From an uncultured Solirubrobacterales bacterium (GTDB taxonomy: Bacteria > Actinomycetota > Thermoleophilia > Solirubrobacterales > Solirubrobacteraceae), in assembly GCA_963760155.1 (NCBI GenBank), contig CAVXBL010000003.1:58663-122662 (forward strand): DNA of 64,000 nt, given 5' to 3'. Made by a program: the position numbers and the translations under genes. Below, piece by piece: positions 12,701-27,369 of this stretch (position 1 is the first letter of the stretch; every line of letters starts with the position of its first letter). A model generated the notes under the pieces. It saw nothing but the letters and a program-made list of their open reading frames with translations. It had not been told where the DNA came from and searched no databases.

Positions 12701-12730
12701 AGTACCGCCAACGGGATTCGAACCCGTGTT
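12701..12730 (-). repeat. 30 bp copy of the tRNA-Glu 3' end (distal att site of island B)
   Basis: AGTACCGCCAACGGGATTCGAACCCGTGTT is identical to 27295-27324. Confidence 0.92.
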
Positions 12731-13013
12731 TTAGTCCCGATGGCCAGGGCCATCCAGAGCAATAGCGCTCCAGGAGCAGCTCGCGCCGATCTCGGCGACG
12801 GCGGGAGACAGTCGTCAGCACGATTCGCAACGATAGCTGACGTGAGACCCTCACGTTCCTTTAACAGCCGTAGAGCGTCAACGACCACAGGAAGCTGCTC
12901 CTGTGCATCCACTACCTTACCGCGCACATGGCAGCACGCTTGCGTACGTCACGACAATGACCACTCAAGACGCTCGATAGCGTTTTCGCGCACCGCACGC
13001 GCGACAAGCTTCT

Positions 13014-13754
13014 TTAGTCCAACGTCGTTGAAAACGACTGGCCGTCCTGCGTCCAGTACAGCGTGCTTCCAACAACAGACTGGGGATTCGTACCGATGTT
13101 TGTACCGCCGACCGACAACGCCAGCGAAGATGGATCGATGCTGGTCCCATATGCTACGAGTCGTGTCCCTGACTTGTCCAGTGTATACACATCGAAATAC
13201 GGATTCTCAGTACCATTAGGGAGCCCAGACCTCTCGTAGTCTTCGGCGATCCACGCCACCGAGCCGTCGCTCTTCATAACGAGTGACACAATATTCCCCA
13301 CACCGACATATTCCGGCATAGGCGTCAGAGGCTGACCCGTAGGAACTCGATGAAGTGTACGCCCAGTGCGCAAATTACGGACAACCACCCACCGTTCCGC
13401 GCGGCTACTCTCATAGCCCCCGATAGTAGCTTCTTCATATGCGACCATCGAGCCAGCCAGGGTCTCGTGAGCTATCCCTCCCGCGCCGCCAGATGACGCG
13501 TACGGTACCGGGCCGAGAAAAACGGGTCTGTGTCCATAGACACAACCATATACGCCCAAATATTCCGGAAATGCATGGGGTTCCGTAGCCTTGTATAGCT
13601 GTGCTTGTGAATTGGCGGAGATCGGGCGAGAGTGTCCGGGCCTGCACTTTGTGGCCGCCTTATGTTGGGTGGCCACGGCGCTCGCACGCTCAGTTGTCGG
13701 GAACAGGGCTAGCGCAGAGATCGCAGCTATGGTGGTTAGTCTCATCTTGTCCAT
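13014..13754 (-). CDS. Hypothetical secreted protein (island B cargo)
   Basis: 246 aa ORF with signal-peptide-like N-terminus, visibly lower GC than the core genes. Confidence 0.65.
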   Translation of the reverse strand: MDKMRLTTIAAISALALFPTTERASAVATQHKAATKCRPGHSRPISANSQAQLYKATEPHAFPEYLGVYGCVYGHRPVFLGPVPYASSGGAGGIAHETLAGSMVAYEEATIGGYESSRAERWVVVRNLRTGRTLHRVPTGQPLTPMPEYVGVGNIVSLVMKSDGSVAWIAEDYERSGLPNGTENPYFDVYTLDKSGTRLVAYGTSIDPSSLALSVGGTNIGTNPQSVVGSTLYWTQDGQSFSTTLD

Positions 13755-13775
13755 AACACTACTATACTTTCTATA

Positions 13776-14239
13776 AGCTAGAGCTCCTTCGCCGGTCTAT
13801 ATCCCACTTCCGCGTTCAGCGTCTGGTCTATCTCGTCCGTACCTGTAATCGATGACGCTACAATGTTAGCCGGCGATGCACTACTGATGAGAGACGTTGC
13901 CTCCGAAGGTGCTACCGTGCTCTCGCCTTCGTTGGTAGCGGTCACAAGCACCCTTAGCGTAGATGCGACGTCACTTACAGTGAGTGTGTAAGCGCTCGTA
14001 GGGGCACCGCTAATGACAGTGCAGCTTTCGCCGCTTTCGTTGCATCACTCCCATTGATAGCTGTAGATGATCGAGCCTGTGCCAGACCAGATTCCGGTCG
14101 TCACGGTTAGTATGTCTCCCTTGAGCCCGTTACCGGACACAGTCGGCGACACTTCGCTTTCGGACGCGCTTTCCGCAGCAATCTGCCGTGTCGCCGCAGA
14201 GAATCGCGAAACCGTACCGCCCGGTTCACTTGCGCTCAC
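13776..14239 (-). pseudogene. Remnant of an Ig-like repeat surface protein
   Basis: TVSG...GDILTVTTGIWSG...YSYQWE*CNESGESCTVISGA....YTL...DV.STLRVLVTATN; in-frame TGA at 14045-14047 interrupts a recognisable repeat. Confidence 0.65.
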
Positions 14240-15149
14240 ACGAACCTCAGCGTGTCACCCACATTTCCGCTACCCAAAACATAAGACGAAACGGTTGCAC
14301 TTTCAATATTTTTGCAGTCGCCGCCATTGCTATTACAGTTCTCCCATTGCCAGGGCAGGTTCAACCGAGTCCTTGCAACGCAGTTTTGTTGACGGGATCG
14401 TAGCTGCTCGTTGAGGGCCTCGGCTGGTGTTCTCCATTGGAGCGCAGAGCTTGACGACCTGCGGCGCCTGTGACACTACGTCTGGCGTCCTTTGCTCGTT
14501 CAGGCGGAAGATCGTCTACCGTGACGGAATGGCAGTGCACGGCAGGTCGAGGGCGAGGTCCATCGAGGTCTCCTTTGGTCTGCGATGCTTTTGAGCACCG
14601 CAAACTTCGAACCGGTTACTCAGAAATCCTCGAAAACCAGGACCTCACCGCGGAATCAATCATCTGACCAGAGTGCTGACGCGGTGAACGAATAGGCCTC
14701 GGCGGTCCTCGCCCTCAAGCCCCAAGCTCCGCACTGCCTCCTCAACCCCCGGATACTCCGGGTGGCCGAAGTCGTCGAACACAATGAGGGAGCCCTCCCC
14801 GAGAGCCGGTCTCCACGCTTGAACCTCACGTATGCGAAAGGAGAACCATAAGCACGACGGCAGCCACCGCCGATCGGCAGGACCGGCCAGAGCAGGCCAG
14901 CTAGAACGAGATCAGCGCCGAGCAGCGCGACAACACCGGTTCTGAACGCGATGCTCTGCGAGGACTCAAACCATCCGTGAACGGTCGATGAGACCGAGTG
15001 CACGATCCACAGCCATGTCGGCGCGACCGACGCGGTGCGGCGCCCGGAGGAGGCCGGACTTCTGCAAAAGATCGGGGAGTTCGTTGGCTCTCGCCCGCCG
15101 CCGCGGCGCGCGGCCGAGCGGCTGACCCTGGGGTAGTTGGGGGGTCGTA

Positions 15150-15665
15150 GCTGCCAAAGCAGCGCCAGGCCGCATCAACCACTTCGACTAGAAGTGGCAC
15201 CGGCTAATCATCTTCACGAAGGGCAAGAAGGTCCGCGAAATCCCGATCCTCGACCCGGAGTTCTGGACAGACCTAGAGCGCTACATCCTCGAATCCGAAG
15301 CCAGACCCGACCACTACCTCATGGCCCGGAGCACCGGCCGCTACGGCAAGGTAGACCCGACAAAGCCGATGGGGCCACACGGAGTGCACAACTGGTGGTA
15401 CCAGCGCCTTGTGGGCGCTGGAATTGTGGCAAAGTGCCCAACTAAGGGCCAGAGGATGCACAAGGCTCGGCACACAGCTGGGCAGCGCGTGCTCGACGCC
15501 ACCGGGAACCTCAAGGCCGTACAGCAACTACTCGGCCACGCCTCAATACAGACCACCGGCGACATCTACACGGACTGGGACATCGATCAGCTCGCCGCCA
15601 CGATGGCCGAGATCCTTGACGACGACAGTCCGACGGACAGCAAGCCGAATCCTAAATTGATCCCG
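15150..15665 (+). pseudogene. Truncated tyrosine integrase (catalytic C-terminal half)
   Basis: NHFD*KWHRLIIFTKGKKVREIP...HKARHTAG...VQQLLGHASIQTTGDIY; in-frame TAG near 15189 and no N-terminal domain. Confidence 0.8.
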
Positions 15666-15700
15666 TTGAACTCCAGAAAACCCTGCAAATCAGCACTTTA

Positions 15701-15741
15701 TACCGCCAACGGGATTCGAACCCGTGTTACCGCCGTGAGAG
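15701..15741 (-). repeat. 41 bp copy of the tRNA-Glu 3' half (att between islands A and B)
   Basis: TACCGCCAACGGGATTCGAACCCGTGTTACCGCCGTGAGAG is identical to 27297-27337. Confidence 0.95.
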
Positions 15742-15823
15742 CGCTCCCGGCAGGGGTAGCCGACGACGCCCATCGTGGCCCCTTTTAGCCCGTAAACGCC
15801 TTGAATACTGAGGATTCGCCACC

Positions 15824-16216
15824 TTGGCGCGGCCCGCTGTCGCCCGGCCAAGACCGCCGTTTACCGGGGGCGCGGGGTCCGTAGGGGGTCCAGCCGAGGG
15901 GTACGACAGAATCCGCACCGTGCCGGAGCGACGTGGCGACCAATACCTTGCCGCTGCCGAGCGGGCCATCCGACGGCCCGGCAGGTGGATCAACGTACGA
16001 GTCTTCTCTGGCGAGAAGAATGCTCGCGTCACGGCATGGGCGATGGAGCGAGGGTTCGTCCGCAACCGGCCACGCGACGGCCAGGAGCCGATCCAGGTTG
16101 GCGGTCAGATGTGCATCGCGCTGCCCTGCCGACCGAAGGCCGAAGTTGCCCCTGCCGACGACGGATGGCTACTACGAATCCGGGCTCCAAAGCGACGTCC
16201 GATGGCGGATCAGTAG
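15824..16216 (+). CDS. Hypothetical protein
   Basis: 130 aa ORF convergent with the XRE gene; no motif recognised. Confidence 0.35.
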   Translation: MARPAVARPRPPFTGGAGSVGGPAEGYDRIRTVPERRGDQYLAAAERAIRRPGRWINVRVFSGEKNARVTAWAMERGFVRNRPRDGQEPIQVGGQMCIALPCRPKAEVAPADDGWLLRIRAPKRRPMADQ

Positions 16217-16425
16217 AGCCCGGACAAGAGCTCGTCGGGCCGTAGCTCAAGCGCCGCAAGAAGCCGCAGGAGCGTCGTCAGGCGTATCTCTCGCGTGCCG
16301 CGCTCGATGCGCGAGACCTGGACTACGGCCAACCCGGAGGCGTGCGACAGGTCCTCCTGGGTCCAGCCGCGAGCGTGGCGGGCGGCGCGGATGTTCTGGC
16401 CGAAGCGTTGGACGGGCGACTCCAT
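16210..16425 (-). CDS. XRE-family HTH regulator
   Basis: FGQNIRAARHARGWTQEDLS..SGL....VSRIERG.RE..LTTL. Confidence 0.9.
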   Translation of the reverse strand: MESPVQRFGQNIRAARHARGWTQEDLSHASGLAVVQVSRIERGTREIRLTTLLRLLAALELRPDELLSGLY

Positions 16426-16485
16426 GCGCCCGATCCTCGGCCAACAGAACCAACATGACCATGACCAACCCGGTAAGTTTGACCC

Positions 16486-16923
16486 ATGTTGCCCACACGC
16501 AAGACGGCGACGGCGCTGGTCGCTATCGCCTGCTCCGCATCGGTCGCCGGAGGATGCAGCGGCTCAGAACCACACCCAACAGCGTCGTCTAAAGAAAAAC
16601 ACGCGACGTCGTCGCCTGATAGTCCACTCTTGGCTTCCGCGAAGCTCGCCAGCATCCAGGTCGGGCACGAAGTCTCAGCCGACGACCCCCTCATCAAGAG
16701 CATCGAGCGGTTCACGGCATCGCTCCAACGCCGCTGCCGCGAGGACGCCATACACATAGACGGCATCGCAGGCTCCATGTCGAGCGATCTGCGCAAGCAC
16801 GGCATAAGCGAAACGCCGCTCGCCGCACTCAGGCGTCTCAATCGGATCGTCCCACCCGAGGCGCGCTCATTTGACTGCACCGGAGCAGCAGCGGGATACC
16901 TCGTCCTCCGCGAGCCAGAATAG
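16486..16923 (+). CDS. Putative lipoprotein
   Basis: Signal peptide ending in lipobox-like VAGGC followed by a Ser-rich linker. Confidence 0.65.
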   Translation: MLPTRKTATALVAIACSASVAGGCSGSEPHPTASSKEKHATSSPDSPLLASAKLASIQVGHEVSADDPLIKSIERFTASLQRRCREDAIHIDGIAGSMSSDLRKHGISETPLAALRRLNRIVPPEARSFDCTGAAAGYLVLREPE

Positions 16924-16949
16924 TCCGCCTACCACGCACAGGAGAAGCT

Positions 16950-17312
16950 ATGCGCCCGTATCTCGTCGCCCTCGCTATGTTCGCGGTCGGCCTCTCCGCC
17001 ACCCTGCCGAACTCAGCCCTCGCCAGACACCGCCCAACCAACAGCGAGCCGACGACTCGCAGCCACATCTGCCACCGCGTCGCTCACAACGAGCGCATGG
17101 AGGCCACCAACTTGCCATGTTGGAAGGCCAATGAATACGTGCTTGGGGCGCGCGAAAGGTTCTACAACGTGAACTGGCACGGGCAGGACTTCAAGCTGTA
17201 CGGCTTCTGGTGCAAGGTTGTGAACGAATTCAAGCAGCCTCGTTCTACGTGGTACTTCAACTGCGAACGTGGCAGGAAGTACGCCAACTTCACCTGGACG
17301 TTCGAGCAATGA
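16950..17312 (+). CDS. Putative secreted Cys-containing protein
   Basis: Signal peptide ending SALA; four Cys residues; RBS GGAG upstream. Confidence 0.65.
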   Translation: MRPYLVALAMFAVGLSATLPNSALARHRPTNSEPTTRSHICHRVAHNERMEATNLPCWKANEYVLGARERFYNVNWHGQDFKLYGFWCKVVNEFKQPRSTWYFNCERGRKYANFTWTFEQ

Positions 17313-17350
17313 GACTACGACGCGGCTCCAAGCTCCATCATGGAGATCGA

Positions 17351-17818
17351 ATGATGGGCGCCAAGGTGAAGCGTCCAAGGTGGATGCTATACGTCGGGGC
17401 GTGCTCGGTCGTTGCCGCTGGCGGCTGTGGTGGTGGAAGCACCGCAACAAGCACGAGCCCGAACAACTCACATCGCACGCCCACGACGTCAACAACTAAT
17501 GCCAAGCAGCAAGCCGCACGCGAACATATCCAGGCTGAAAAGATACATAAGCTAGAACAACAGCAAGTGCAGCAGCGCGAAGAACGTGAACGCGAAGCGC
17601 AGCGGCATGCAAGAGAAAATCAACAGCGTGAAAATAAACATGAAGTTGAAGAAGAAAACCGACCGCTACGAGAATCACAACATCGCACCTTGGAAGAATC
17701 GTGCTTGCATAGAGCAGAAGAACGCCGCGCAGCAGAAGAACGCACAAGAAACAGCGAATATCAAATACGATCCGAAACAGAAAGTTGCGTGAGAGAATCT
17801 GAAGAAGCCGCCGGTTAG
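17351..17818 (+). CDS. Putative lipoprotein with charged coiled coil
   Basis: lipobox-like AAGGC, Thr/Ser linker, E/Q/R-rich helix; A-rich low-GC coding. Confidence 0.6.
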   Translation: MMGAKVKRPRWMLYVGACSVVAAGGCGGGSTATSTSPNNSHRTPTTSTTNAKQQAAREHIQAEKIHKLEQQQVQQREEREREAQRHARENQQRENKHEVEEENRPLRESQHRTLEESCLHRAEERRAAEERTRNSEYQIRSETESCVRESEEAAG

Positions 17819-17869
17819 CGTACATAGAGGTAACGATTCGCTTCCACGGTCGGCGTACACCGTAACGGT

Positions 17870-18229
17870 CTACAACGCGCAGCCGATGGGTGGCCTGCGT
17901 TCGTAGGCCGCGCGCCAGGCGCTGAGCGTGGCGTCCAGCGCGACGGCCCATTGCTCGCGCTCGCGCTTGTCGGACTCGACCGATAGCGCCACGGCGCGCG
18001 TAGGGCCGAGCGCTCGCTCCCACGGCATCCCGGCGCGGCGCGCGAGCGCCAACCCCTCCCGGAAGATCGCCAGCGGGTCGCCGTGGGCTCCTTTGATGAC
18101 GAACGACAATCTTAGCTTGGGTGTCGGCTTGGCCTCCGGCGGCTCGCGTTGACGCGGCGGCGGCGTAGGCTCGGCGAGCGCTTCGCGCGCTTCGCGTTCG
18201 CGCCGTTTGCGGAGGGGTCTACCGGACAT
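17870..18229 (-). CDS. Hypothetical protein (island A left operon)
   Basis: 119 aa ORF, last gene of the minus-strand run. Confidence 0.55.
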   Translation of the reverse strand: MSGRPLRKRREREAREALAEPTPPPRQREPPEAKPTPKLRLSFVIKGAHGDPLAIFREGLALARRAGMPWERALGPTRAVALSVESDKREREQWAVALDATLSAWRAAYERRPPIGCAL

Positions 18230-18421
18230 AGCGCACTCGTGGGCGGACGGAGTTCGAGCAGCAGGGAGGGGTGGCCGCGCTCAAGCGCCACTCCCTGCAA
18301 TCCGCCCGCCCACGACTACCTCCCACGAGAGAGCGCACTCGTGGGCAGGCGAGGCACTGGAGGTAAGCCGGAGGAACACCAAAAACCGGCCGCGATCTGC
18401 CCCGCCCACCCACGACTACGC

Positions 18422-18604
18422 TCATCCCCACGGCCTCCCGAACAAGGTGTTGCGGCCGGTGGCGTACTGCTCGGCCTTGATCGCCTCAATGTCCTGGTGG
18501 GCGCACGCCAGGCGCTTCTCATCGACGCCGCGTTCATGGCGGTGACGCTCGGCCTCCGTTGCCGGGACGAAGCCGCACGCGGGACAGGTCCAGTCAACGC
18601 CCAT
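18422..18604 (-). CDS. Small CxxC (zinc-finger-like) protein
   Basis: WTCPACGF followed by HRH; overlaps the upstream gene end. Confidence 0.55.
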   Translation of the reverse strand: MGVDWTCPACGFVPATEAERHRHERGVDEKRLACAHQDIEAIKAEQYATGRNTLFGRPWG

Positions 18605-19115
18605 GAGGGAACCTGCTCGTCAGGCTCATGGCCGCGCGCTCGTGGCGCTCGGTGCGCAGGCGGTCAGCCTTCGGTGCGCTGGCGGTAAGCGCGGCCCGCT
18701 TGACGACGGCCTGCCGCGTCTCCTCGGCTAGCTGCTCGATTTCCTCGATTGCCTGCCCCACCCCCGGCGGCGCGTTGTTGATGTGGCAGGCCCATACGGG
18801 GTCGCGCAGCACCGCTGCCCGGCGGTTAGAGGGCAGCGCCCAGTACACAGCGGCGAGACGGTCAGGGTCCATCACGCCGAAAGCCTCTAGCGAGGTCAGC
18901 GGCGTGCGGTGTGCGGTACGCAGCAGGTTGACCAAGTGCCCGCACAGACGGTCTATATCCCGGGAATGCAGGATCAGCGTGCGGTCAAGATCACCGAGCC
19001 CTGACTTGAGCAGAAGCTCAATGCGTTGGCCGTGAGTGCCTGATAGATATTCGGGGCGCTCGGCGAGCAGCCGATAGCGCCGGGCCATGAACGCGATTGT
19101 GTGTGCGTTGCCCAT
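18594..19115 (-). CDS. Hypothetical protein
   Basis: 173 aa ORF in a tightly packed operon. Confidence 0.55.
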   Translation of the reverse strand: MGNAHTIAFMARRYRLLAERPEYLSGTHGQRIELLLKSGLGDLDRTLILHSRDIDRLCGHLVNLLRTAHRTPLTSLEAFGVMDPDRLAAVYWALPSNRRAAVLRDPVWACHINNAPPGVGQAIEEIEQLAEETRQAVVKRAALTASAPKADRLRTERHERAAMSLTSRFPHGR

Positions 19116-19116
19116 G

Positions 19117-19218
19117 TCATTTGATCTTCGGTAGAGGATGCGGCTTGGGCGCTGGCGGCCACGGTTTGCCGGGTTTCAGCGTGACCGGGCCGCTCGGGGT
19201 GTTGATCGTGATCCCCAT
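19117..19218 (-). CDS. 33 aa Pro-rich peptide (not in ORF track)
   Basis: MGITINTPSGPVTLKPGKPWPPAPKPHPLPKIK; start overlaps the upstream stop (TGATG) and the stop is 1 nt from the next ATG. Confidence 0.5.
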   Translation of the reverse strand: MGITINTPSGPVTLKPGKPWPPAPKPHPLPKIK

Positions 19219-19625
19219 CACAGGCCTCCGTTCACGATGCGCCCCGACCGGCGACCCTCGCGCGCCGCCGCCACACGCTCACGCTCGCCCGGTGACAGGT
19301 GCGTCTCCACGTAACCCTGAGAGGCTGCGGCTGCGGACGTGCCGCCGCTCAGACCGAGGCTTTGCAGGTAGCTCCGCGTGCCTGAGGGGTCTTTGTCGTA
19401 GCACTCGGCGAAGTGCCCGCGCAGCGCACCGCCGATAACACCCTGATGCACCGCCGCGTCCAACAGCGTCTCACGGTCAAGGAAGCTGTTGGCTCTGGCG
19501 GTCGTAGCCGCGCTGACCTTCTGCCTGGGGGTGTAGTTACCTTGCGCCCTCGCTGCGCGCGCTTGCTGCCTGCCCGCCATGCGGTCCGCCGGTGGTCCGG
19601 CGAACTGCGCAATGAGTCGGCTCAT
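19218..19625 (-). CDS. Hypothetical protein, possibly similar to the C-terminal domain of phage head scaffold/protease
   Basis: LDAAVHQGVI.....GHF..CYDKDPSGTRSYLQSL resembles the DAA..G.I.PA...HW......DP.GT...L pattern; ATGA overlap with the upstream gene. Confidence 0.55.
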   Translation of the reverse strand: MSRLIAQFAGPPADRMAGRQQARAARAQGNYTPRQKVSAATTARANSFLDRETLLDAAVHQGVIGGALRGHFAECYDKDPSGTRSYLQSLGLSGGTSAAAASQGYVETHLSPGERERVAAAREGRRSGRIVNGGL

Positions 19626-20593
19626 GCCGGTACTCCTTTCGTGATCTCAGTGAGTTGGTCGATTACCGTTTGGCGGACGGCGCTGCCACCCGCCACAAGC
19701 TCGGCGTCGATCAACCGCTGCGCCATCGCCGCGTTACCTTCAGCAGCCGCGACGACAACATCAGCCGACGGCTTCGGATTGCCATCGAACTGGCCGGTGC
19801 TCATCAGCCAATCGACCAAGTCCTCGTCGTCTAGGTCGTTCAACTCGACCTCGCCGTATTGCTCGTCGTCAGCGACAGGCTGCGGACGCTGCGACAACAC
19901 CTGCGCTTCCAGCGCGCGGCCCTCCTGCTCGGTGGCTCGGCGCTCCGGCGTCAGGCTGCCCGCGTAGGAGCGCTCGAAGAACTCCTGATCGCGCCGGTCT
20001 TCCTCGACTGGGTCGCCGGACGGTGGCGCGGGAATGTCCGAGTAGGGGAAGTGGGCAGTGGGCAACTCGGCTCCCTGCACCGTGCGCTCGATCCAGTGCT
20101 CAAGACGACCGTAGTGCCCGCGCTTGGCGCGTAGTGCCGCCGCCTGCGCTAGCAGCGCGCGCACTTCACCATCCACACTGCCTTGAAACGCGGCGATCTC
20201 TCCAAGCCACTCCTGCCGGTGTTCGAGCACGAGCGCGATGCAGGAGTTCAGATGCTCAGTGAGCGCTTCCGACGCCGCCTGCGCGTGCTCCTGCGCCTCG
20301 ACCAGTTCCGCCTTCAACTCCTCGCCATCGCCGCCGGGCTGCGGGTCGGTCTGCCCGGCGAGGTAAGCCTCCCGCAGCGCGGTCGTGCGCTGCTCCGCGT
20401 CCGCCTCGATGCGCGCTTCCAGATCACGCCGCCGCTCCCCAGCGGCTTGCCTCGCGGCGCGTAGCTGCTGTGCCTTCTCGCGCGCCTCCGTCAACTCAGG
20501 GAACGCCTCGATATCCGGTAGCCAGCCCTCCGACCAAACGGCCGGAGCCGTCCCTGTACCTGTAATCCTTGCGAACGTAACAGTGTTACTCAT
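19622..20593 (-). CDS. Coiled-coil hypothetical protein
   Basis: 323 aa, long A/E/R-rich helices; first gene of the minus-strand operon. Confidence 0.7.
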   Translation of the reverse strand: MSNTVTFARITGTGTAPAVWSEGWLPDIEAFPELTEAREKAQQLRAARQAAGERRRDLEARIEADAEQRTTALREAYLAGQTDPQPGGDGEELKAELVEAQEHAQAASEALTEHLNSCIALVLEHRQEWLGEIAAFQGSVDGEVRALLAQAAALRAKRGHYGRLEHWIERTVQGAELPTAHFPYSDIPAPPSGDPVEEDRRDQEFFERSYAGSLTPERRATEQEGRALEAQVLSQRPQPVADDEQYGEVELNDLDDEDLVDWLMSTGQFDGNPKPSADVVVAAAEGNAAMAQRLIDAELVAGGSAVRQTVIDQLTEITKGVPA

Positions 20594-20718
20594 GGCGACC
20601 TCTCTGCGGTGTGGTGGGCGTTACCTCCTGAGCATTACGGTACGCCAACTTCCGAACCCTGAGACTCCAACTTGGAAGTTGGAAACTTTGACTCCCAAAT
20701 AACCAATAAGCTACGGCC

Positions 20719-21318
20719 GTGGCGCACACCAAAGAGCAACGAGACCACTCCAGCTTGTGTAACGCGCGCAAGCGCAATGGGGACCGTTGCCGCGCCTTCG
20801 CGGGACAAGGCACAAATCACCCTGGCGTTGGTCCCTGTAAACACCATTTGGGTAACTCATTGGCGCACGAAAAGAAAGCAATCGCGCTCAACCTCAAGCG
20901 GCAGATGGTCACATATGGGGAGCCCGTCGAGGACGTCTCTGCGCTCGATGCTCTGCTACAGGAGTTGGCCGCAGCCGTCGGCCATACCGGCTGGTTGCGT
21001 GCCCGGATCGCCGACCTAAGCCAAGACGAGCTCGGCACCGCATACGGCGTCGCGCTTGTCCGCCTCTACGATTCGGAGCGCGATCGCAAGGCTCGCGTGG
21101 CGCGTCTCGCCATCGAGAGCGGGGTCGATGAGGCAAAGATCCGCGTTATGGAGGGGCAAATCCAGATGCTGGGTGCTGCGCTGGCGCGAGCTTGTGACCT
21201 CGCGGGCCTCAGCGAGCCGGTCAAGCGCAAGGTTGGAACGTTCCTGCGCGACGAGCTTGCCGCAGCCCAAGCCAAGCCGCAGGAGCAACGGCTCATAGAG
21301 GACAACGGAAGGCGCTAA
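20719..21318 (+). CDS. HGGxSTG-type zinc-finger protein, probable small terminase-like
   Basis: CNARKRNGDRCRAFAGQGTNHPGVGPCKHHLG (C-x10-C...C-x2-H) followed by a helical oligomerisation-like region. Confidence 0.65.
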   Translation: MAHTKEQRDHSSLCNARKRNGDRCRAFAGQGTNHPGVGPCKHHLGNSLAHEKKAIALNLKRQMVTYGEPVEDVSALDALLQELAAAVGHTGWLRARIADLSQDELGTAYGVALVRLYDSERDRKARVARLAIESGVDEAKIRVMEGQIQMLGAALARACDLAGLSEPVKRKVGTFLRDELAAAQAKPQEQRLIEDNGRR

Positions 21319-21702
21319 AGGGTAACAACGGGCGGGGGTGACGGGCGGTAGTTTTCCAACTTGAAGCTGCGCCTTTACAACCCAGGCTCGCCTGCTATAC
21401 ACTTCCAGTAGCCATTCGGACCCCACATATCGGGTCTAGCTCTGAATGCGTTGACCAGCGAAGGTGTGCTCAGTGAACAACCACTGTGATGAGCCTTCCG
21501 AGCCGGGCTTACCCGGTGGGAAGCGCAAGTAGGTGGCAGGCGCGGGTAGTGGTCATCCCCGCGTATCACGGGCGGTTGTTTCGCCGGGACTGGGAGCGGT
21601 CCAAATCTCGACTCATTTGAGAAGTCTTCCCGAAAGGGCAGACGGGCGCGTGAGTTCGGGGTTTGGACCTTGCACGCCCGCCTGCCCGTGAAAGGAAGTT
21701 CG

Positions 21703-21900
21703 ATGAGTACCGCGCAGAAGGAGAAGCTCCTGACACCGGAGGAAGTCTGCGAACGGTTGAATGTCACTCGCCGCTGGCTCCGCAGGGCAGACGAGAAACA
21801 GACCCTCCCCCGCGTCAAGGTCGGCTCGCTAAATCGCTACCCGGAGTCGGCCATCGAGTCATACATCGAGTCCCAAAGCGTCCCAGCCTTGGACTCATGA
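21703..21900 (+). CDS. Excisionase-like HTH (HTH_17)
   Basis: LLTPEEVCERLNVTRRWL......LPRVKVG...RY. Confidence 0.85.
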   Translation: MSTAQKEKLLTPEEVCERLNVTRRWLRRADEKQTLPRVKVGSLNRYPESAIESYIESQSVPALDS

Positions 21901-21901
21901 T

Positions 21902-22897
21902 ATGGCTAACCGAACAAGCGGGAGGGCAAGACGTGTAGCGAAACACGCCTGCCCTCGCCAAGAGACAGAACACCACTCGACCACCGCTGAGGAGGTAGCC
22001 AATCAGAAGTATACGCCAAACCGGCACACAGGTACCTGCCCGGTCTGTGAAGGAGCGGGGTGCCTCACGGTTGAGCGGCGCGCTGATGGGCGCGACTGGT
22101 GGGTGAACTGCTGGAAAGCTGACTGCCTCAAGGGCGGCGCGTACCTGCGCGAGCTCGCGGTGCTCGCGGGTGCTCCGGGCGGTAGTGCGATCCTGAGCGA
22201 TCCCCTACGGTGGCTAGCGTCGTATCTGGACGAGCCATCAGCCACCGGGAACGGTGAGGCCGACAAGCTGCCATCGGAAGCGTCATGCGCAGGGTGGCAG
22301 TCACGCCTATTCTCTGAATACGCGGCGCTTGATTACCTCACAGATGAGCGCGGCCTGACGGACGAGACGATCCGCGAGTTCGGGATCGGCTGGGGTGGTG
22401 ATGCGTTTACATTCCCGGTCTACGACGAGCAGGGAACCATGGTGCAGCTTGTCCGGCGACGGTGGCCGGAGCCGTGGATTATCAGGGGTAAGCGTGTGCC
22501 CTACAAGGTGCTCAAGGGCCACGGCGCGCAGCTATATCCGCAACCTCTATCGGAGGGCGGCTGGCTACTTTTGGCCGGCACGCTCGATGCAATTTTGGGG
22601 AGACAACACGGCCTGCCTACGGTGACGAGTATCTGCGGGACTTCCTTCCCTCAGAAGTGGGAGCCGCTGGTGAGCGGGCGTAAGGTGTTCGTCTGTTACG
22701 ACGTCGGCGAGGAGAAGGCGATGGACAGTCGCGTGTCTCACCTGCGAGCCGCCGGTGCGGTGGCAACGCCGGTGCGGCTCAACCGCCTACTCCGTCGAGG
22801 CGACGGCAAGGATCTCAGCGATGCCCTCACCGGCGGCTACACCGCGCAGGACATTATCCGCCTCATCGAACGCGAGCGCAGGAGGCAGGCGGCATGA
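21902..22897 (+). CDS. Primase-like protein (Zn finger + Toprim) with degenerate catalytic motifs
   Basis: CPVC...C...C, YL..ERGL..ETI..F.IG, FPVYD..G, LLLAGTLDA (EGxxDA position), YDVG and KDLSD. Confidence 0.8.
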   Translation: MANRTSGRARRVAKHACPRQETEHHSTTAEEVANQKYTPNRHTGTCPVCEGAGCLTVERRADGRDWWVNCWKADCLKGGAYLRELAVLAGAPGGSAILSDPLRWLASYLDEPSATGNGEADKLPSEASCAGWQSRLFSEYAALDYLTDERGLTDETIREFGIGWGGDAFTFPVYDEQGTMVQLVRRRWPEPWIIRGKRVPYKVLKGHGAQLYPQPLSEGGWLLLAGTLDAILGRQHGLPTVTSICGTSFPQKWEPLVSGRKVFVCYDVGEEKAMDSRVSHLRAAGAVATPVRLNRLLRRGDGKDLSDALTGGYTAQDIIRLIERERRRQAA

Positions 22898-22927
22898 CGA
22901 TTCTCCTGAGGCAGTCCGCTTGAGGAG

Positions 22928-24013
22928 GTGGACACGATGGCCAAGATTCCATTCGACGTCACAGGTGTGGTGTCGCAGCCACCTTCGCAGCGCATGAAGC
23001 GTATGTCCACCGAGGACGTCGTCCGCGTGGAAGTCGTGGACAAGGAGGTTGAGGCAGGTAGCTTTGCCGCGCGTGTCGAGGCTCGTCAAGTTGACCTCGT
23101 GCAGTTGATAGAGCAAGGGCTACCGCCGCTCGAATACCTACCAGCTTCGGACGGGATGCTCGTGGGTGGCAAGCGTCACCTTATTGCAGCGCCAGCCAAG
23201 GTCGGCAAGTCAATAAGCATGTTGGTGCATTTCGTAGACATGGTGCTGGCGAACGGCAACGTGGTCATACTCGACCGGGAGAACGGCAGTGATCTCTACG
23301 CCAAGCGTCTTGCCGACATATTCGCCGCGCGGAAACTGACTAAGAAGCAGCGCGAGCAGGTGCGCGCAGGGCTGCACTATTACGAGTTCCCTCAACTGCG
23401 CAGCGGCGATGCAGACGCGCTGGCCGAGCACTTCGCAAGCGCCGATCTAGTCGTGTTCGATGCACAGCGCATGTTCCTGTCCGATTTCGGCCTGAAGGAG
23501 AGCGTGTCAGACGACTACGCAGAGTTCATGTCCTACGCGATAGACCCTCTATTCCGAGCGCGCATCGCCACACTGATCCTAGACAACACCGGCCACAAGG
23601 AGCAGACGCGCGGTCGCGGCACGGCCGCCAAGGGCGACCTCAACGAGTTGTTGTTTTCGATGGACACCCTCTCGGAGTTCGATCTGTACCGCCCAGGCAG
23701 GCTCAGGCTCAAGGTGGAGTTCTCGCGGTCCGGTACGAGCGGCGAGTGGACAATGGACATCGGCGGCGGTCACTTCACCTCATGGCAGTCAACGGTAGAT
23801 ACCTCGTCGCATGACAGAGACGACTTTCTGGACGCTGTAAAGGCCGCGCTCAATGGCAGACAACTCGGCGCGGACAAGCTGATAAAGGTAGCACGGGACA
23901 AAGAGGTAAGCATCGGCACCGATCACGCTAGGAGGCTGCTGGATCAGTACGTGACCGACCCATCAATCCCCATTTCCAAGACCCCGAAGGGATACCAAAA
24001 TGATGCTGTGTAG
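22928..24013 (+). CDS. AAA_25/RepA-like replicative helicase
   Basis: Walker A APAKVGKS, Walker B LVVFD, DNTGH...RGRGTAA; follows the primase. Confidence 0.8.
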   Translation: MDTMAKIPFDVTGVVSQPPSQRMKRMSTEDVVRVEVVDKEVEAGSFAARVEARQVDLVQLIEQGLPPLEYLPASDGMLVGGKRHLIAAPAKVGKSISMLVHFVDMVLANGNVVILDRENGSDLYAKRLADIFAARKLTKKQREQVRAGLHYYEFPQLRSGDADALAEHFASADLVVFDAQRMFLSDFGLKESVSDDYAEFMSYAIDPLFRARIATLILDNTGHKEQTRGRGTAAKGDLNELLFSMDTLSEFDLYRPGRLRLKVEFSRSGTSGEWTMDIGGGHFTSWQSTVDTSSHDRDDFLDAVKAALNGRQLGADKLIKVARDKEVSIGTDHARRLLDQYVTDPSIPISKTPKGYQNDAV

Positions 24014-24302
24014 ACCCGCCGTTTGGGCGCGGCGGGGGTCAGTTTGCGGCGGGTCTACGGCGGGGGTGCCCCGAAACACCCAAAATCTGGCTCTATTACT
24101 GGGAATAACCCCCGCCGCCAGAGGCGCGGCGGGTCTGCGGCGGGACCCCCCGCCGCCCCTCTCCCCTCTAGGGAGGGGCGGGTCCTGGCGCGGCGGGGGC
24201 GGGGCAACCCGCAATTCATCCTCAAAATTTGACCGCCACCCCAAGCGCTCGCCCTCCGTCCGGCGGCACAGCGTCAAGAGTCATTGTCGTGTCAAGAGTC
24301 AT
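24014..24302. repeat. GC-rich iteron-like cluster after the helicase (candidate origin)
   Basis: GGCGCGGCGGG at 24026, 24123 and 24187; further GCGGCGGG and inverted CCCGCCGC copies; GTCAAGAGTCAT at 24273 and 24291. Confidence 0.55.
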
Positions 24303-24567
24303 CGGAGATCACATGCTCACCAAGACAATCGCCATATTCACCTACCTAGCGGCATCCATCCTGCTGACCTACGCCCTGGCAGTGGCCGCGCACGTAGCCA
24401 CGTAGCGCCCACGTAGGGCGGCAACCTGTACCCTATTCACCCATACAACCGCTGAGGATTCAGATAAAGATTTCACCATACGACCCCGTAACGACCCTAT
24501 TTGTTGCAGATTCGCGCTATCTTTCGTAGACAGACAATCGTCTGCGCATACGAAACCGGGAGGCATC

Positions 24568-24963
24568 ATGCCAGCAGTAAAGAAGTTCACCATTACACCG
24601 TTGAAGTTCGATCAGAACCTCGTTGAGCAGGTAACGCACCGCCGGGCAGACGGCGAGAATATCGCCACCATAGCCACAGCGTTGAAGATGGGCGCTGGCA
24701 AGGTGGCGTTCGCTGAGTTGATCGCCACGACCACACGCGTCACCATCACCGACCCGGCGAAGCTGGCGCGCACCATCAGCAAGGACAGGCACAACGGCAA
24801 GTCGTGGGGCTGGCTGGCTGCGCGCTACGGCGTGACAGAGGGCACATGCCGCGCCGCGTTCGTGGCCGCCAGCGGCCAACCATTCACATCAATCGACTAC
24901 CGCCGCAAGGCAAAGGCAGCCGGCAAGACGACCAAGCCTGCACAGGCCAAGGCAGGTGCGTGA
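24568..24963 (+). CDS. Putative double-HTH DNA-binding protein coupled to the integrase
   Basis: GENIATIATALKMG and GKSWGWLAARYGVTEG HTH-like segments; TGATG overlap with int. Confidence 0.6.
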   Translation: MPAVKKFTITPLKFDQNLVEQVTHRRADGENIATIATALKMGAGKVAFAELIATTTRVTITDPAKLARTISKDRHNGKSWGWLAARYGVTEGTCRAAFVAASGQPFTSIDYRRKAKAAGKTTKPAQAKAGA

Positions 24964-26207
24964 TGGCGGGCCACATCAGGAAGCGGGGCAAGCGCGCAGA
25001 CGGCACGATCAAGTGGCAGGCGCGCTATCCCGATCCAACAGACCCCACCGGACAGCGCCGCATCGAGAAGGGCGGCTTCAACAGCAGGAAAGAAGCGGAA
25101 GACTGGCTGACCAATCAGCAGGCGTCGGTGCTGCACGGCGAACACCGCGACCCGCGCCAGGCGCAGCGCACATTCGTGGAGGCGGTAGAGGCGTGGCGTG
25201 AGACGCGCAAGCCTCTACTCTCGCCCAACACGCAAGAACGCTATGAGGACATTCTGCGCCTGCGGCTGATGCCTGAGTTCGGTCATCTGCCGCTCACGGC
25301 GATGACGCGCGAAGTCCTCAAGCGCTACTTCGCACGATTGGGCCGCGAGGGCAAGACCGGCGGCAAGAAGGAGCGCGCAGGCAAGCCGCTCGCCAACGGC
25401 ACCGTGCGCAAGATTCACTGTGTCCTGTCGGCGGTGCTGAGCGAGGCCGTCGAGATGGACATGATCCGGGCCAACCTCGCGCAGCGCATGAGGCTCCCCG
25501 CCTCGCCCCGGCGGAAGATGACGATCCTCACGCAGCAAGAGGTTCGCGCTCTCGCGGACGCAACCGACGAGCACTACAGGACAGCCGTGCTGCTCGATGC
25601 CAACACGGGGATGCGCGCGAGCGAGCTATGGGCGTTGCGGCGCATGGACGTTGACCTGCTGCGCGGCGTGCTGCACATTCGCTTCGCGGTCAAGCGCGAC
25701 ACCGCCCGCCCGGACGCGCCGCCGGAGACGGTGGATAGGTACGGGCGTGAGATCGGCCCGCCTAAGAACGGCAGGCCGCGCACGATCGCCATCGGCAAGG
25801 CCACCTGCGCGATGCTGGCGCAGCACTTGACCCGGCCCGCTCCCGGCGGCAATGGCCCTGAGACGTTGGTATTCCTCACCGAGACGGGCTGCGCCGTTCG
25901 GCATGGGGTGTTCATGCGTGAGGTGTTCGCCGAGGCGGTCAAGGAGCTACCGGCGGACAAGCGCAAACTTCGTTTTCACGATCTGAGGCACACCTGCGCT
26001 TCATTGCTCGTGGCGCAGGGCTCCCCCATGCTCTACGTCAAGGAACGCCTCGGCCACTCGTCAATCACGACGACGATCAACCTCTACGGCCACATGTTCC
26101 CGTCCGTGGAGGCGAGCCTTGCCGACGCCCTGGACGGCATGTACGCCGAGGATGCCGGCGTTGACGAGGACAACGTGACGCCCCTGCGCGCCGCCGGAGG
26201 CGCGTGA
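24963..26207 (+). CDS. Tyrosine recombinase/integrase (intact)
   Basis: Arm-binding N-terminus (KWQARY...GGF...KEA), TGMRASELWAL, PKNG, FHDLRHTCASLL and LGHSSI.TT.NLYGH. Confidence 0.95.
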   Translation: MAGHIRKRGKRADGTIKWQARYPDPTDPTGQRRIEKGGFNSRKEAEDWLTNQQASVLHGEHRDPRQAQRTFVEAVEAWRETRKPLLSPNTQERYEDILRLRLMPEFGHLPLTAMTREVLKRYFARLGREGKTGGKKERAGKPLANGTVRKIHCVLSAVLSEAVEMDMIRANLAQRMRLPASPRRKMTILTQQEVRALADATDEHYRTAVLLDANTGMRASELWALRRMDVDLLRGVLHIRFAVKRDTARPDAPPETVDRYGREIGPPKNGRPRTIAIGKATCAMLAQHLTRPAPGGNGPETLVFLTETGCAVRHGVFMREVFAEAVKELPADKRKLRFHDLRHTCASLLVAQGSPMLYVKERLGHSSITTTINLYGHMFPSVEASLADALDGMYAEDAGVDEDNVTPLRAAGGA

Positions 26208-26389
26208 TGGGCGTGGGAAGCTGCCCGGAGGATTACCGATGCCCGACGTGTGGCTGCGACTATCGGAGGCTCGACGCGACTACATGGTACTGCCCCTTCT
26301 GCGACGCCAAGATGGTTGAGACGGAGGGCCGACGACTCACGCAGGAGGAAACCAAAGCACTGTTCGGCAAGCAGGCGCAGGGCGGGTGA
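26204..26389 (+). CDS. Small zinc-ribbon protein
   Basis: CPTCG...YCPFCD; overlaps the integrase stop. Confidence 0.6.
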   Translation: MMGVGSCPEDYRCPTCGCDYRRLDATTWYCPFCDAKMVETEGRRLTQEETKALFGKQAQGG

Positions 26390-26432
26390 GCGAGCACCGC
26401 GCCCTGTACGAGCGGCGCGGCCTCCCTGCTGC

Positions 26433-26687
26433 CTACTGCGCGATCTGATCGAAGTGCAGCGCGGCGCGTGTCGGGAATATCAAGCCGTCCGCCGTGTGGT
26501 GAATCAAGCCGATGCCGCTCAGACGTTTGATCGCGTCCTGCACGTTCTCCGGTTTCGCGCGTTTGTCGCGGTCGCGGATCATCTCCTCGACCGACCAAGG
26601 CCGCTGATCGTCCTCACTCAGCAGCCGTTCCATAACGGCCCAGTCGTCTCTGTCCTCTTCTTCGGCTATGCGGTTGTCGTCGTCCAT
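26433..26687 (-). CDS. Small winged-helix protein (paralog 2)
   Basis: RPWSVEEMIRD.....VQDAIKRL..IGLI....G..FPTRAA. Confidence 0.65.
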   Translation of the reverse strand: MDDDNRIAEEEDRDDWAVMERLLSEDDQRPWSVEEMIRDRDKRAKPENVQDAIKRLSGIGLIHHTADGLIFPTRAALHFDQIAQ

Positions 26688-26941
26688 CAGAACGACAACT
26701 CCGCAGCCCTGACCGCTGCTCTCGTCGGCGTCCACTGCTCGCCCTCGTGTAGCGCGAGGCCATCGGTAACGAGCACCGCGAGCGCCTGCTCCACTTCGGA
26801 GCGTTCGTTCGGCTTGTTGGGGTCGCGGTCGAGCGCGCGGCAGATTGGCTCGAACGTCCGGGCGTTATCGTGGACCAGGACGTGGAGCACGACCGCCGCC
26901 AATAGGTCGATGTGCTGCGAGATACCATCGTTGTCGGGCAT
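26687..26941 (-). CDS. Small winged-helix protein (paralog 1)
   Basis: EVEQALAVLVTDGLA......WTPTRAA; TGATG-coupled to paralog 2. Confidence 0.6.
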   Translation of the reverse strand: MPDNDGISQHIDLLAAVVLHVLVHDNARTFEPICRALDRDPNKPNERSEVEQALAVLVTDGLALHEGEQWTPTRAAVRAAELSF

Positions 26942-27262
26942 GGGGAGTCACAACCTCCTGGTGTCCAGAGCCGCGTGGCGCGTCAATCGCTGCGCGGCTC
27001 ACTTTGTAGGGCTTGTCACTAGCAAACGCTACGTGCCCAACCGGCGGGACCAGCCGCCACCGGAAGCCCGTCCCAGCGCAGGCCACACACAGGCCACGCC
27101 TACGGCCCTGCGATTGCGCAACCCATGTACGGGTGTGCCCTGGGACGCTACGGCGTTTCTACGTGGCCCTAACGCGGGCTGCCCGACCCCGCCTGCCGCG
27201 CCAGGGTCGCTACAGGGTCGCAACGCCCATTTGTTACCGCCCTACTCGGGGTCTGATCGCGC

Positions 27263-27289
27263 AAAAAGCCCAGTAGCTACGGGCTTTTT
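27263..27289 (-). terminator. Intrinsic (bidirectional) terminator downstream of tRNA-Glu
   Basis: AAAAAGCCC-agtagctac-GGGCTTTTT. Confidence 0.75.
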
Positions 27290-27296
27290 CGAGAAG

Positions 27297-27369
27297 TACC
27301 GCCAACGGGATTCGAACCCGTGTTACCGCCGTGAGAGGGCGGCGTCCTAGTCCCCTAGACGATGGCGGC
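27297..27369 (-). tRNA. tRNA-Glu (CTC)
   Basis: GCCGCCA/TGGCGGT acceptor stem, anticodon arm CCGCC-CTCTCAC-GGCGG, GGTTCGAATCC T-loop; CCA not encoded. Confidence 0.96.

Follow-up and report, generated by a model that had tools for sequence, protein, structure and literature searches.

A probable new family of phage satellites in Solirubrobacterales, with homologues of head and packaging genes of a Mu-like-head myophage lineage

The phage-inducible chromosomal islands (PICIs) of the SaPI type (Staphylococcus aureus pathogenicity islands) are elements of ~10-15 kb that integrate site-specifically, carry a primase-like gene, a helicase gene with an iteron origin 3' of it and a gene of the TerS type (small terminase subunit), and have no capsid, portal, TerL (large terminase subunit) or tail genes. 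In the published SatelliteFinder definition, the PICI core consists of int, alpA or another regulator, pri-rep, a capsid-morphogenesis gene and terS, tail, holin and capsid-forming PICI (cfPICI) genes are forbidden, and >99.9% of the detected PICIs lie in chromosomes of Proteobacteria or Firmicutes (PMC10085698). Within the Actinomycetota, the satellites of the Mulch and Flayer systems of Streptomyces are reported to encode encapsidation functions (PMC10690885). Our literature search found no reports of Solirubrobacter satellites and no description of satellites in this clade. Here we describe an island at positions 15745-27296 of a 64-kb stretch of DNA (the window) from a 3.74-Mb Solirubrobacterales genome; scans for absent genes were also run genome-wide. 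Since the island has no virion genes and carries cut-down copies of phage head and packaging genes, we consider it likely to be an integrative phage satellite, and one whose family, in Solirubrobacterales (Thermoleophilia), has not been described before. A satellite had been proposed in an initial annotation of this DNA, and that reading gains support from phage homologues of three island genes, from the lack of any transfer gene and from a family of related islands. The opposite outcome, terS-like and scaffold-like genes without phage homologues in an element that groups with the actinomycete integrative and conjugative elements (AICEs) or with plasmid-like elements, is not what we found.

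The comparison with PICIs was made through the published definition and through Pfam and PHROG matches. The island has an integrase and none of the forbidden genes. It resembles the SaPI-type elements in all the features listed above, and the PICIs of Gram-negative bacteria (EcCICFT073 type) in the core logic of int, regulator, primase-replicase, capsid-modification gene and TerS, and in the absence of tail and holin genes. Its organisation is different. The terS-like gene leads the string xis-pri-hel-ori-p131-int instead of ending it, int is co-directional with the replication genes, the XRE repressor lies at the far left end, and the putative capsid-remodelling genes form a separate divergent operon that includes a second mimic, p323. 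Given this placement of int, the TerS-like gene and the repressor, the island falls outside the PICI organisational definition; the departure from the canonical order, in which int and repressor are divergent, had already been pointed out and holds. Beyond generic int, xis and HTH domains no sequence relation to SaPI proteins was detected, nor any specific relation to proteins of other known satellites, and for the PICI core families Pfam and PHROG give only generic int, HTH_17 and primase matches. The candidate helper, a myophage with a Mu-like head, and the thermoleophilian host also set it apart from the SaPIs. Gene order and gene families differ from those of the Gram-negative PICIs and cfPICIs, and the cfPICIs carry capsid, portal, TerL and connector genes that the island is without. 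Thus, the island is not a cfPICI and, as argued below, very probably neither an AICE nor a prophage remnant; its logic is PICI-like, and it probably represents a new satellite family.

The second gene of the leftward operon, p135 (19218-19625, minus strand), is homologous to the C-terminus of a phage scaffold. The first clue was a faint match to the C-terminal part of phrog_3894 (0.015). Residues 50-134 of p135 align with the last ~100 residues of a Mu-gpI-like protease/scaffold encoded on the phage contig L038 (phrog_3894 1e-83; Pfam Mu-like_Pro 9e-12; PF10123 at profile positions 139-316), and p135 also aligns with a separately encoded 138-aa scaffold open reading frame (ORF) of the phage contig L039. 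The identity to the phage scaffolds by BLASTP is 31-35%, hhalign gives 97.9% (E 5e-13), and a hidden Markov model (HMM) of the p135 family finds the phage scaffolds among 1,548 ORFs with E-values of 1.9e-14 and 4e-12. In the reverse search, the phage scaffold profile recovers the p135 homologues of six other islands. Two blocks are common to both sides, D.AI..G.I......HY......DP.GT...L.SL and LS..ER.R...A..G...R[IV][IV], and p135 keeps the C-terminal R-[IV]-[IV] tail of the scaffold. Phage Mu encodes its scaffold, gpZ, in the C-terminal part of the protease gene I. Since p135 matches this part, it reads as a protease-less scaffold tail. There is a parallel in SaPI1, where CpmB has the capsid-binding C-terminal helix-and-hook of the 80alpha scaffold and competes with that scaffold (PMC5644958); p135 too appears to copy the capsid-binding C-terminus of a helper scaffold.

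The first gene of the same operon encodes the coiled-coil protein p323 (19622-20593, minus strand), which has 29 relatives in all, each of them an island protein. An alignment-based pattern search with p323 led to the phage contigs L038, L039 and L040, where the last 70-95 residues alone match (42-50% identity). Residues 228-320 of p323 are 50% identical over 94 aa to the C-terminus of a 164-176-aa phage protein, which is encoded directly after the gene for the major capsid protein (MCP; phrog_1650 2e-72). Structure prediction of the left-operon proteins, proposed along with the initial annotation, gives for p323 an AlphaFold2 (AF2) model (pLDDT 83) with a long helical hairpin (helices 32-78 and 90-176) and a small C-terminal helical domain. 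The genes of p323 and p135 overlap at the start codon (ATGA).

L038 is a bona fide myophage segment, on which the gene order is TerL, endolysin, portal, protease/scaffold, a 257-aa protein, the major head protein, the 176-aa protein with the p323 domain, putative connectors, a Mu G-like morphogenesis protein and a sheath. It is contained in a complete phage genome, G401 (53,606 bp, terminal repeats, CheckV 100%), which holds homologues of all three island genes, namely the TerS-like gene, p135 and p323; relatives of the 176-aa protein of G401 are found on 53-57-kb contigs. Between L038 and four other phage contigs from IMG/VR (L006-L009), TerL, portal and MCP are 39-52% identical and the protease/scaffold 28-32%. 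These homologies indicate that the three island genes come from the head and packaging module of one ~54-57-kb myophage lineage with Mu-like heads. The island appears to encode helper-hijacking functions, that is, a homologue of the gene in the TerS position, a copy of the scaffold C-terminus and a post-MCP domain. As a separate observation on these phages, an endolysin gene of the amidase or CHAP type lies between TerL and portal (L038 2854-3537; L006 4382-5299), an unusual spot for a lysis gene.

The third of these genes is the terS-like gene (20719-21318, plus strand, 199 aa), which matches phrog_3678 (7e-11). The protein has an N-terminal CCCH zinc motif and then five long helices. Its family comprises ~60 cluster representatives, nearly all of ~190 aa, in which C14, C24, C40 and H43 do not vary. 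The gene had been recognised before by an HGGxSTG motif; the gene stands, whereas the motif reads KHHLGNS in the window copy (HLG, not HGG), HGG being part of the family consensus (...C..HGG.TP). Homologues with 27-34% identity (E 1e-14 to 1e-22) lie by TerL in the four IMG/VR contigs, where they abut or overlap the TerL start (L006, L007) or end 180-280 nt upstream of it (L008, L009). TerL of these contigs belongs to phrog_2 (~1e-31), and the genes after it encode an endolysin and a Mu-type portal. A search upstream of TerL gave no further TerS candidate in the four contigs; the genes there are a member of the phrog_1981 family (function not assigned), whose protein looks RuvC-like in its sequence, and small ORFs. 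In a prophage of the same bacterial class (L030), the terS-like gene is ~800 nt from TerL. In the homologue of phage G401, conservation is confined to the C-terminal 47 aa (47% identity), and there is no zinc-finger head. Such a pattern would be expected of a protein that contacts a conserved partner with its C-terminus and takes its DNA specificity from its N-terminus. A distant copy of the gene at another locus (L005) sits among transposases and is uninformative.

A further line of evidence is the size of the island and its relatives. The borders of the window island are given by a 44-bp direct repeat of the 3' half of tRNA-Glu: attR (27297-27340) lies within the intact tRNA-Glu(CTC) gene (27296-27369, minus strand), attL is at 15701-15744, and the two are identical at 43 of 44 nt. 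Because the repeat of the tRNA-Glu 3' end is present at both borders, the island is 15745-27296 (11.55 kb; att-to-att period 11,596 bp), in agreement with the limits of 15742-27296 given initially. The search for homologous islands, which had also been suggested, revealed a family of near-constant size. Eight islands, the window one included, span 11.3-13.1 kb from att to att and use five tRNA types (Val, Pro, Met, Glu, Arg). Those at tRNA-Val are L048 (11,313 bp), L050 (11,791 bp), L003 (11,981 bp) and L034 (12,156 bp); the others are L028 at tRNA-Pro (11,346 bp), L027 at tRNA-Met (11,358 bp), the window island at tRNA-Glu and, from Conexibacteraceae, L051 at tRNA-Arg (13,095 bp). The named hosts are metagenome-assembled genomes of Solirubrobacterales, Solirubrobacteraceae and Conexibacteraceae according to public records, and the family occurs patchily, in 13 of 401 genomes of the class.

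The divergent pair of terS-like gene and p323 is present in every related locus, p135 is found in six of the eight islands, and p173, pri, p131 and int occur in most. Other parts are exchanged. The helicase is swapped in L036 (296-1735) for an SF3 helicase with D5_N/DUF5906 domains, as against AAA_25 elsewhere, and the cargo varies, with lipoproteins in the window island and a 702-aa NlpC/P60-CHAP protein in the left operon of L003 (5576-7684). The islands measure ~0.2 of the phage genome. Since the size stays steady despite a changing tRNA target, helicase and cargo, we take the size constancy as a probable sign of a packaging constraint.

Several observations weigh against the satellite reading or against parts of it. 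In the cultured actinophages Kukla (Arthrobacter), TripleJ, LuckyBarnes (Brevibacterium) and BIM BV-113 (Glutamicibacter), and in the phages G401 and G402, the homologue of the terS-like gene lies 1.4-2.9 kb upstream of TerL with genes between; in the cultured phages it is annotated as hypothetical only, and phrog_3678 carries the annotation 'unknown function'. The protein matched no recognised TerS family or fold in Pfam, NCBIfam and a PDB profile search, and a zinc-finger protein acting as TerS in actinophages was not found in the literature search. Its AF2 monomer is helical with a pTM of 0.43 and gave only coiled-coil noise in a BFVD fold search; the same holds for fold searches with the p323 model in PDB and BFVD. 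The family profiles of the TerS-like protein and p323 had no credible match in PDB, and the 176-aa phage protein is without an assigned function. As for the helper, tblastn with TerL, portal, protease, MCP and sheath of the related phage gave no match in the 3.74-Mb genome itself, in which no helper prophage was found, the 401 genomes of the class gave only two distant MCP matches and no helper prophage, and no island-type contig was found in IMG/VR. Since the genome has no resident helper and the class has few prophages of the lineage, we presume that a non-resident phage acts as helper when it infects. The short phage matches in the host genome come to one 28-nt chance match, outside any repeat array.

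Stand-alone contigs of island size count in the same direction, since they fit insertion polymorphism or an assembly break better than an excised circle. One of them (L002, ENA ERZ25039507 contig_6022) is 11,557 bp long and 99.86% identical to the window island; it corresponds to window positions 15739-27296, ends within 6 nt of the att borders, and differs from the island mostly by single-base indels, the pattern of a noisy long-read consensus. This suggests that occupied and empty sites coexist in the source community of L002. One related island is likewise known twice: it sits in a 3.65-Mb chromosome and also makes up an 11,983-bp Logan contig (L004), whose breaks fall within the att repeats, as expected of a k-mer graph. 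No terminal overlaps were found in the island-sized contigs. Because they end at att and do not overlap at their termini, we read these contigs as assembly-graph breaks or the result of insertion polymorphism; they confirm the limits of the unit and give no evidence of circles.

The distance of 1.4-2.9 kb from TerL and the missing functional assignment make it possible that the terS-like gene encodes a late-operon regulator instead of TerS. The island would still be a satellite, and the protein would be a zinc-finger activator of late operons, as P2 Ogr and P4 delta are, and not a small terminase. Island and phage copies would cross-activate the late genes of the helper and, from the common divergent promoter, the capsid-remodelling operon of the island, and packaging specificity would come from a cos or pac site read by the helper's own terminase. 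A Cys3His zinc motif followed by helices would suit such a protein, and the gene heads the rightward operon, with a conserved palindromic region between it and the p323-p135 operon opposite. LuckyBarnes has a different small gene, flagged TerS, closer to TerL.

A comparison can be made with P4 and the P4-like satellites of P2-type myophages. The P4 genome is ~11.6 kb, nearly the size of the island, and its helper is a myophage; its long alpha-helical protein Sid is co-transcribed with the zinc-finger protein delta, a homologue of Ogr, a pair that resembles p323 and the terS-like gene if the latter is an activator. In contrast to p135, Sid forms an external cage and is no copy of a helper scaffold, and P4 uses the helper cos without a TerS. 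Pfam and PHROGs gave no match in the island to Sid, Psu, delta, alpha or epsilon; a weak Ogr_Delta match (0.006) concerns only an unrelated 61-aa Zn-ribbon ORF. In the four phages nearest the lineage with p135 and p323 homologues, the gene directly precedes or overlaps TerL and is the only TerS candidate found. With G401 the protein has its C-terminus in common but not its N-terminal DNA-binding part, as expected of a TerS with redirected specificity, and the conserved intergenic motif of the island had no meaningful match in the phage loci at hand, including the regions upstream of late genes. We therefore favor the TerS role and regard the activator as unlikely, though it deserves to be kept in mind.

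A second alternative concerns transfer itself. The island could be a self-replicating defence island whose phage-derived decoys only sabotage phage assembly, the island not being packaged. The same homologies would serve pure interference, and the genome has yielded no helper. On the other hand, eight islands with different tRNA targets, helicases and cargo would hardly stay within 11.3-13.1 kb unless packaging set a limit, and every member retains an excision module together with a replication module that looks inducible and has an origin of its own. None of the island ORFs matched any of 5,027 defence models, PADLOC and NCBIfam were silent on those without a family, and known satellites do both, interfere and transfer. 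A pure defence role thus seems distinctly improbable.

The actinobacterial host and the int-xis-rep module at a tRNA would also suit an AICE-like or plasmid-like conjugative element (pSAM2, SLP1 type) in which the similarity to phages is incidental, and one relative carries a cell-wall hydrolase, the 702-aa NlpC/P60 protein. In the island ORFs, Pfam, NCBIfam and PHROGs gave no match to the conjugation families FtsK/TraB, VirB4, relaxase or coupling protein, and no TraB/FtsK-type, Spd or Nudix/pif gene is seen in them. The sole NTPase of the island is the AAA_25 helicase of the replication module, so a translocase of the AICE kind is missing. Together with three separate, statistically solid links to the head and packaging module of one phage, this makes a conjugative element very improbable. 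Least probable of all is that a prophage with a Mu-like head decayed to leave the island, as the fragments of phage head genes might suggest, since these 'fragments' are intact, tightly coupled ORFs kept in eight islands at 30-70% protein identity, the mobility and replication kit is complete and the size constant, and the p323 fusion is unseen in phages, all 29 relatives being island proteins.

For the satellite we propose the following mechanism, which builds on the homologies, the architecture and the size constancy. The XRE repressor would keep the island silent until an infecting helper of the phage lineage derepresses the divergent region at 20594-20718. The rightward operon (terS-like gene, xis, pri, helicase) would then excise the island and replicate it from the iteron origin, with p131-int driven by a promoter of its own. 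The TerS-like protein would combine a phage-type C-terminal segment, presumed to contact TerL, with its own zinc-finger DNA-binding head, and would thereby load the helper TerL onto island DNA. As with CpmB in SaPI1, p135 and the helper scaffold would compete for the capsid protein. p323, a coiled-coil hairpin fused to the C-terminal domain of the post-MCP phage protein, would act with p135, and the two would redirect the helper capsid protein into shells for ~12 kb, ~0.2 of the helper genome. On balance we lean towards a founding Thermoleophilia family that reached the CpmB trick independently, with a chimeric p323, a TerS with a swapped zinc-finger head and ~12-kb capsids made from a 54-kb myophage.

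The analysis provides a sequence-defined candidate pairing of satellite and helper for abundant, poorly cultured soil Actinomycetota. It names a candidate helper lineage, including a complete 53.6-kb genome, and the interfaces at which the two would meet, namely TerS-like protein with TerL, p135 with the capsid protein, and the C-terminal domain of p323 with its partner. If the proposal is true, scaffold-tail mimicry as a switch of capsid size would have a second, independent example, on a Mu-type head, and such elements could be found via cut-down pieces of helper genes rather than via family profiles.

The remaining genes and control elements of the island are as follows. No capsid, portal, TerL, tail or lysis gene was matched in any island ORF by Pfam, PHROG or NCBIfam, as had been noted for capsid, large terminase and tail. 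The leftward operon was first counted as seven divergent genes; it consists of six tightly coupled minus-strand ORFs at 17870-20593 (323, 135, 33, 173, 60 and 119 aa), and beyond it lie three plus-strand ORFs of secreted type and the minus-strand XRE repressor. Downstream of p135, p33 (19117-19218, minus strand) is a small ORF with a 31-33-aa counterpart in the same position in L002 and L003. p173 (18594-19115, minus strand) is a conserved island protein found in at least six related islands. A deep HMMER search with it gave 123 cluster representatives among 1.84 billion proteins, none with an assigned function; two of 31 family members match PHROGs, each a different family (E 5e-4 and 3e-3), and the PDB profile search found no credible relative. 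The small Cys-rich p60 (18422-18604, minus strand) is kept in L033, L048 and L050 (64-73% identity), and of p119 (17870-18229, minus strand), the last gene of the operon, the C-terminal 70 aa are kept in five related islands (48-65% identity).

Farther left, three cargo ORFs with a signal peptide or lipobox (16486-17818, plus strand) encode proteins of 145 aa, 120 aa and ~155 aa (coiled-coil) that match no family; this region has the lowest GC of the island. The XRE/Cro-CI-type repressor (16210-16425, minus strand, 71 aa; PF01381 1.7e-14) is 96% identical in the related island L032. Between p323 and the terS-like gene, the divergent control region (20594-20718) contains the conserved motif TACGGTACGCCA (20636-20647) and the palindrome CCAACTTGGAAGTTGG (CCAACTT..AAGTTGG; 20667-20682).

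Domain matches confirm the int, xis, primase-like and AAA helicase genes first read from the sequence. Downstream of the terS-like gene, all on the plus strand, follow an excisionase or MerR-type gene (21703-21900; HTH_17 6e-11), a primase-like gene (21902-22897; phrog_47/239 ~1e-7) whose product has a Zn finger and a Toprim-like region, and the gene of an AAA_25 (RepA/DnaB-like) replicative helicase (22928-24013; 6e-8). The Toprim Glu of the primase-like protein is replaced in the window island (AGTLDA) and in L003 and L034 (GLLDA), and it is retained in the more distant homologues of L027, L028 and L036 (GEFDA or GELDA); all island primase homologues read D-x-[GSN]-E where DxD is expected. 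Judged by these residues, the closest subgroup may have lost catalysis and retained the protein.

The candidate origin proposed at first corresponds to a non-coding region (24010-24210) in which ~10 GCGGCGGG(TCT) iterons, direct and inverted, lie on either side of an AT-rich spacer. Of the 25 GCGGCGGG octamers in the 64-kb window, seven fall in 24029-24197, in both orientations. The same layout is found 3' of the helicase in L003 and L034 with other repeat words, CAGTGRGG and CCGTCGCA, respectively. SaPI origins are likewise island-specific iterons around an AT-rich core. Such island-specific iterons fit with the helicases, which are the most diverged or replaced proteins of the island family.

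Beyond the origin lie p131 (24568-24963, plus strand; 63-77% identity across islands), in which no domain was detected and which overlaps the integrase start, and the 414-aa tyrosine integrase (24963-26207, plus strand; PF00589 4e-21) with Arm-binding, SAM-like and catalytic domains. The initial annotation had a one-way series terS-xis-pri-hel-ori-HTH-int that runs towards the tRNA. The genes are indeed co-directional; the integrase is ~1.1 kb from the tRNA, and the supposed HTH gene, p131, has no detectable domain. A palindrome, CAGAC-AATC-GTCTG, lies 5' of p131 (24531-24544), and it is seen just upstream of p131-int in three islands (also L003 at ~13,580 and L034 at ~5,850). The arrangement suggests that the integrase operon (p131-int) is separately regulated.

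The integration site has a longer history. A decayed third copy of the tRNA-Glu 3' segment lies at 12703-12746 (77% over 44 nt, the first 28 nt identical). From the three copies of this segment it follows that two elements sit in tandem at the tRNA; the other is an older 3-kb remnant (12747-15700, low GC of 0.55) left of the island, and the decayed att is its outer end. This remnant carries the C-terminal fragment of a different tyrosine integrase (15321-15788, plus strand; PF00589 6e-9 at profile positions 121-167 only), in which just ~50 C-terminal residues of the catalytic domain are left and which reads into attL. It also encodes a 246-aa protein with a signal peptide (13014-13754, minus strand). 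The related island L003 has three additional att copies with remnants. Such tRNA sites evidently get reused by integrating elements.

At the right end of the island, just before attR, a hairpin (27263-27289) with A and T runs on both sides is terminator-like in both directions, as read from the sequence; promoter/terminator and Rfam scans found nothing other than tRNAs. The ~1.1-kb gap between integrase and tRNA holds a 60-aa Zn-ribbon ORF (26207-26389, plus strand) and two small minus-strand ORFs, p100 (26433-26735) and p84 (26687-26941). For both p100 and p84 the genome encodes several paralogues elsewhere, with 35-59% identity (C8:151045-151608; C1:13335-14793); a p84-like copy adjoins an XRE gene and a p100-like copy adjoins another integrase, and the two look like a module common to different integrative elements.

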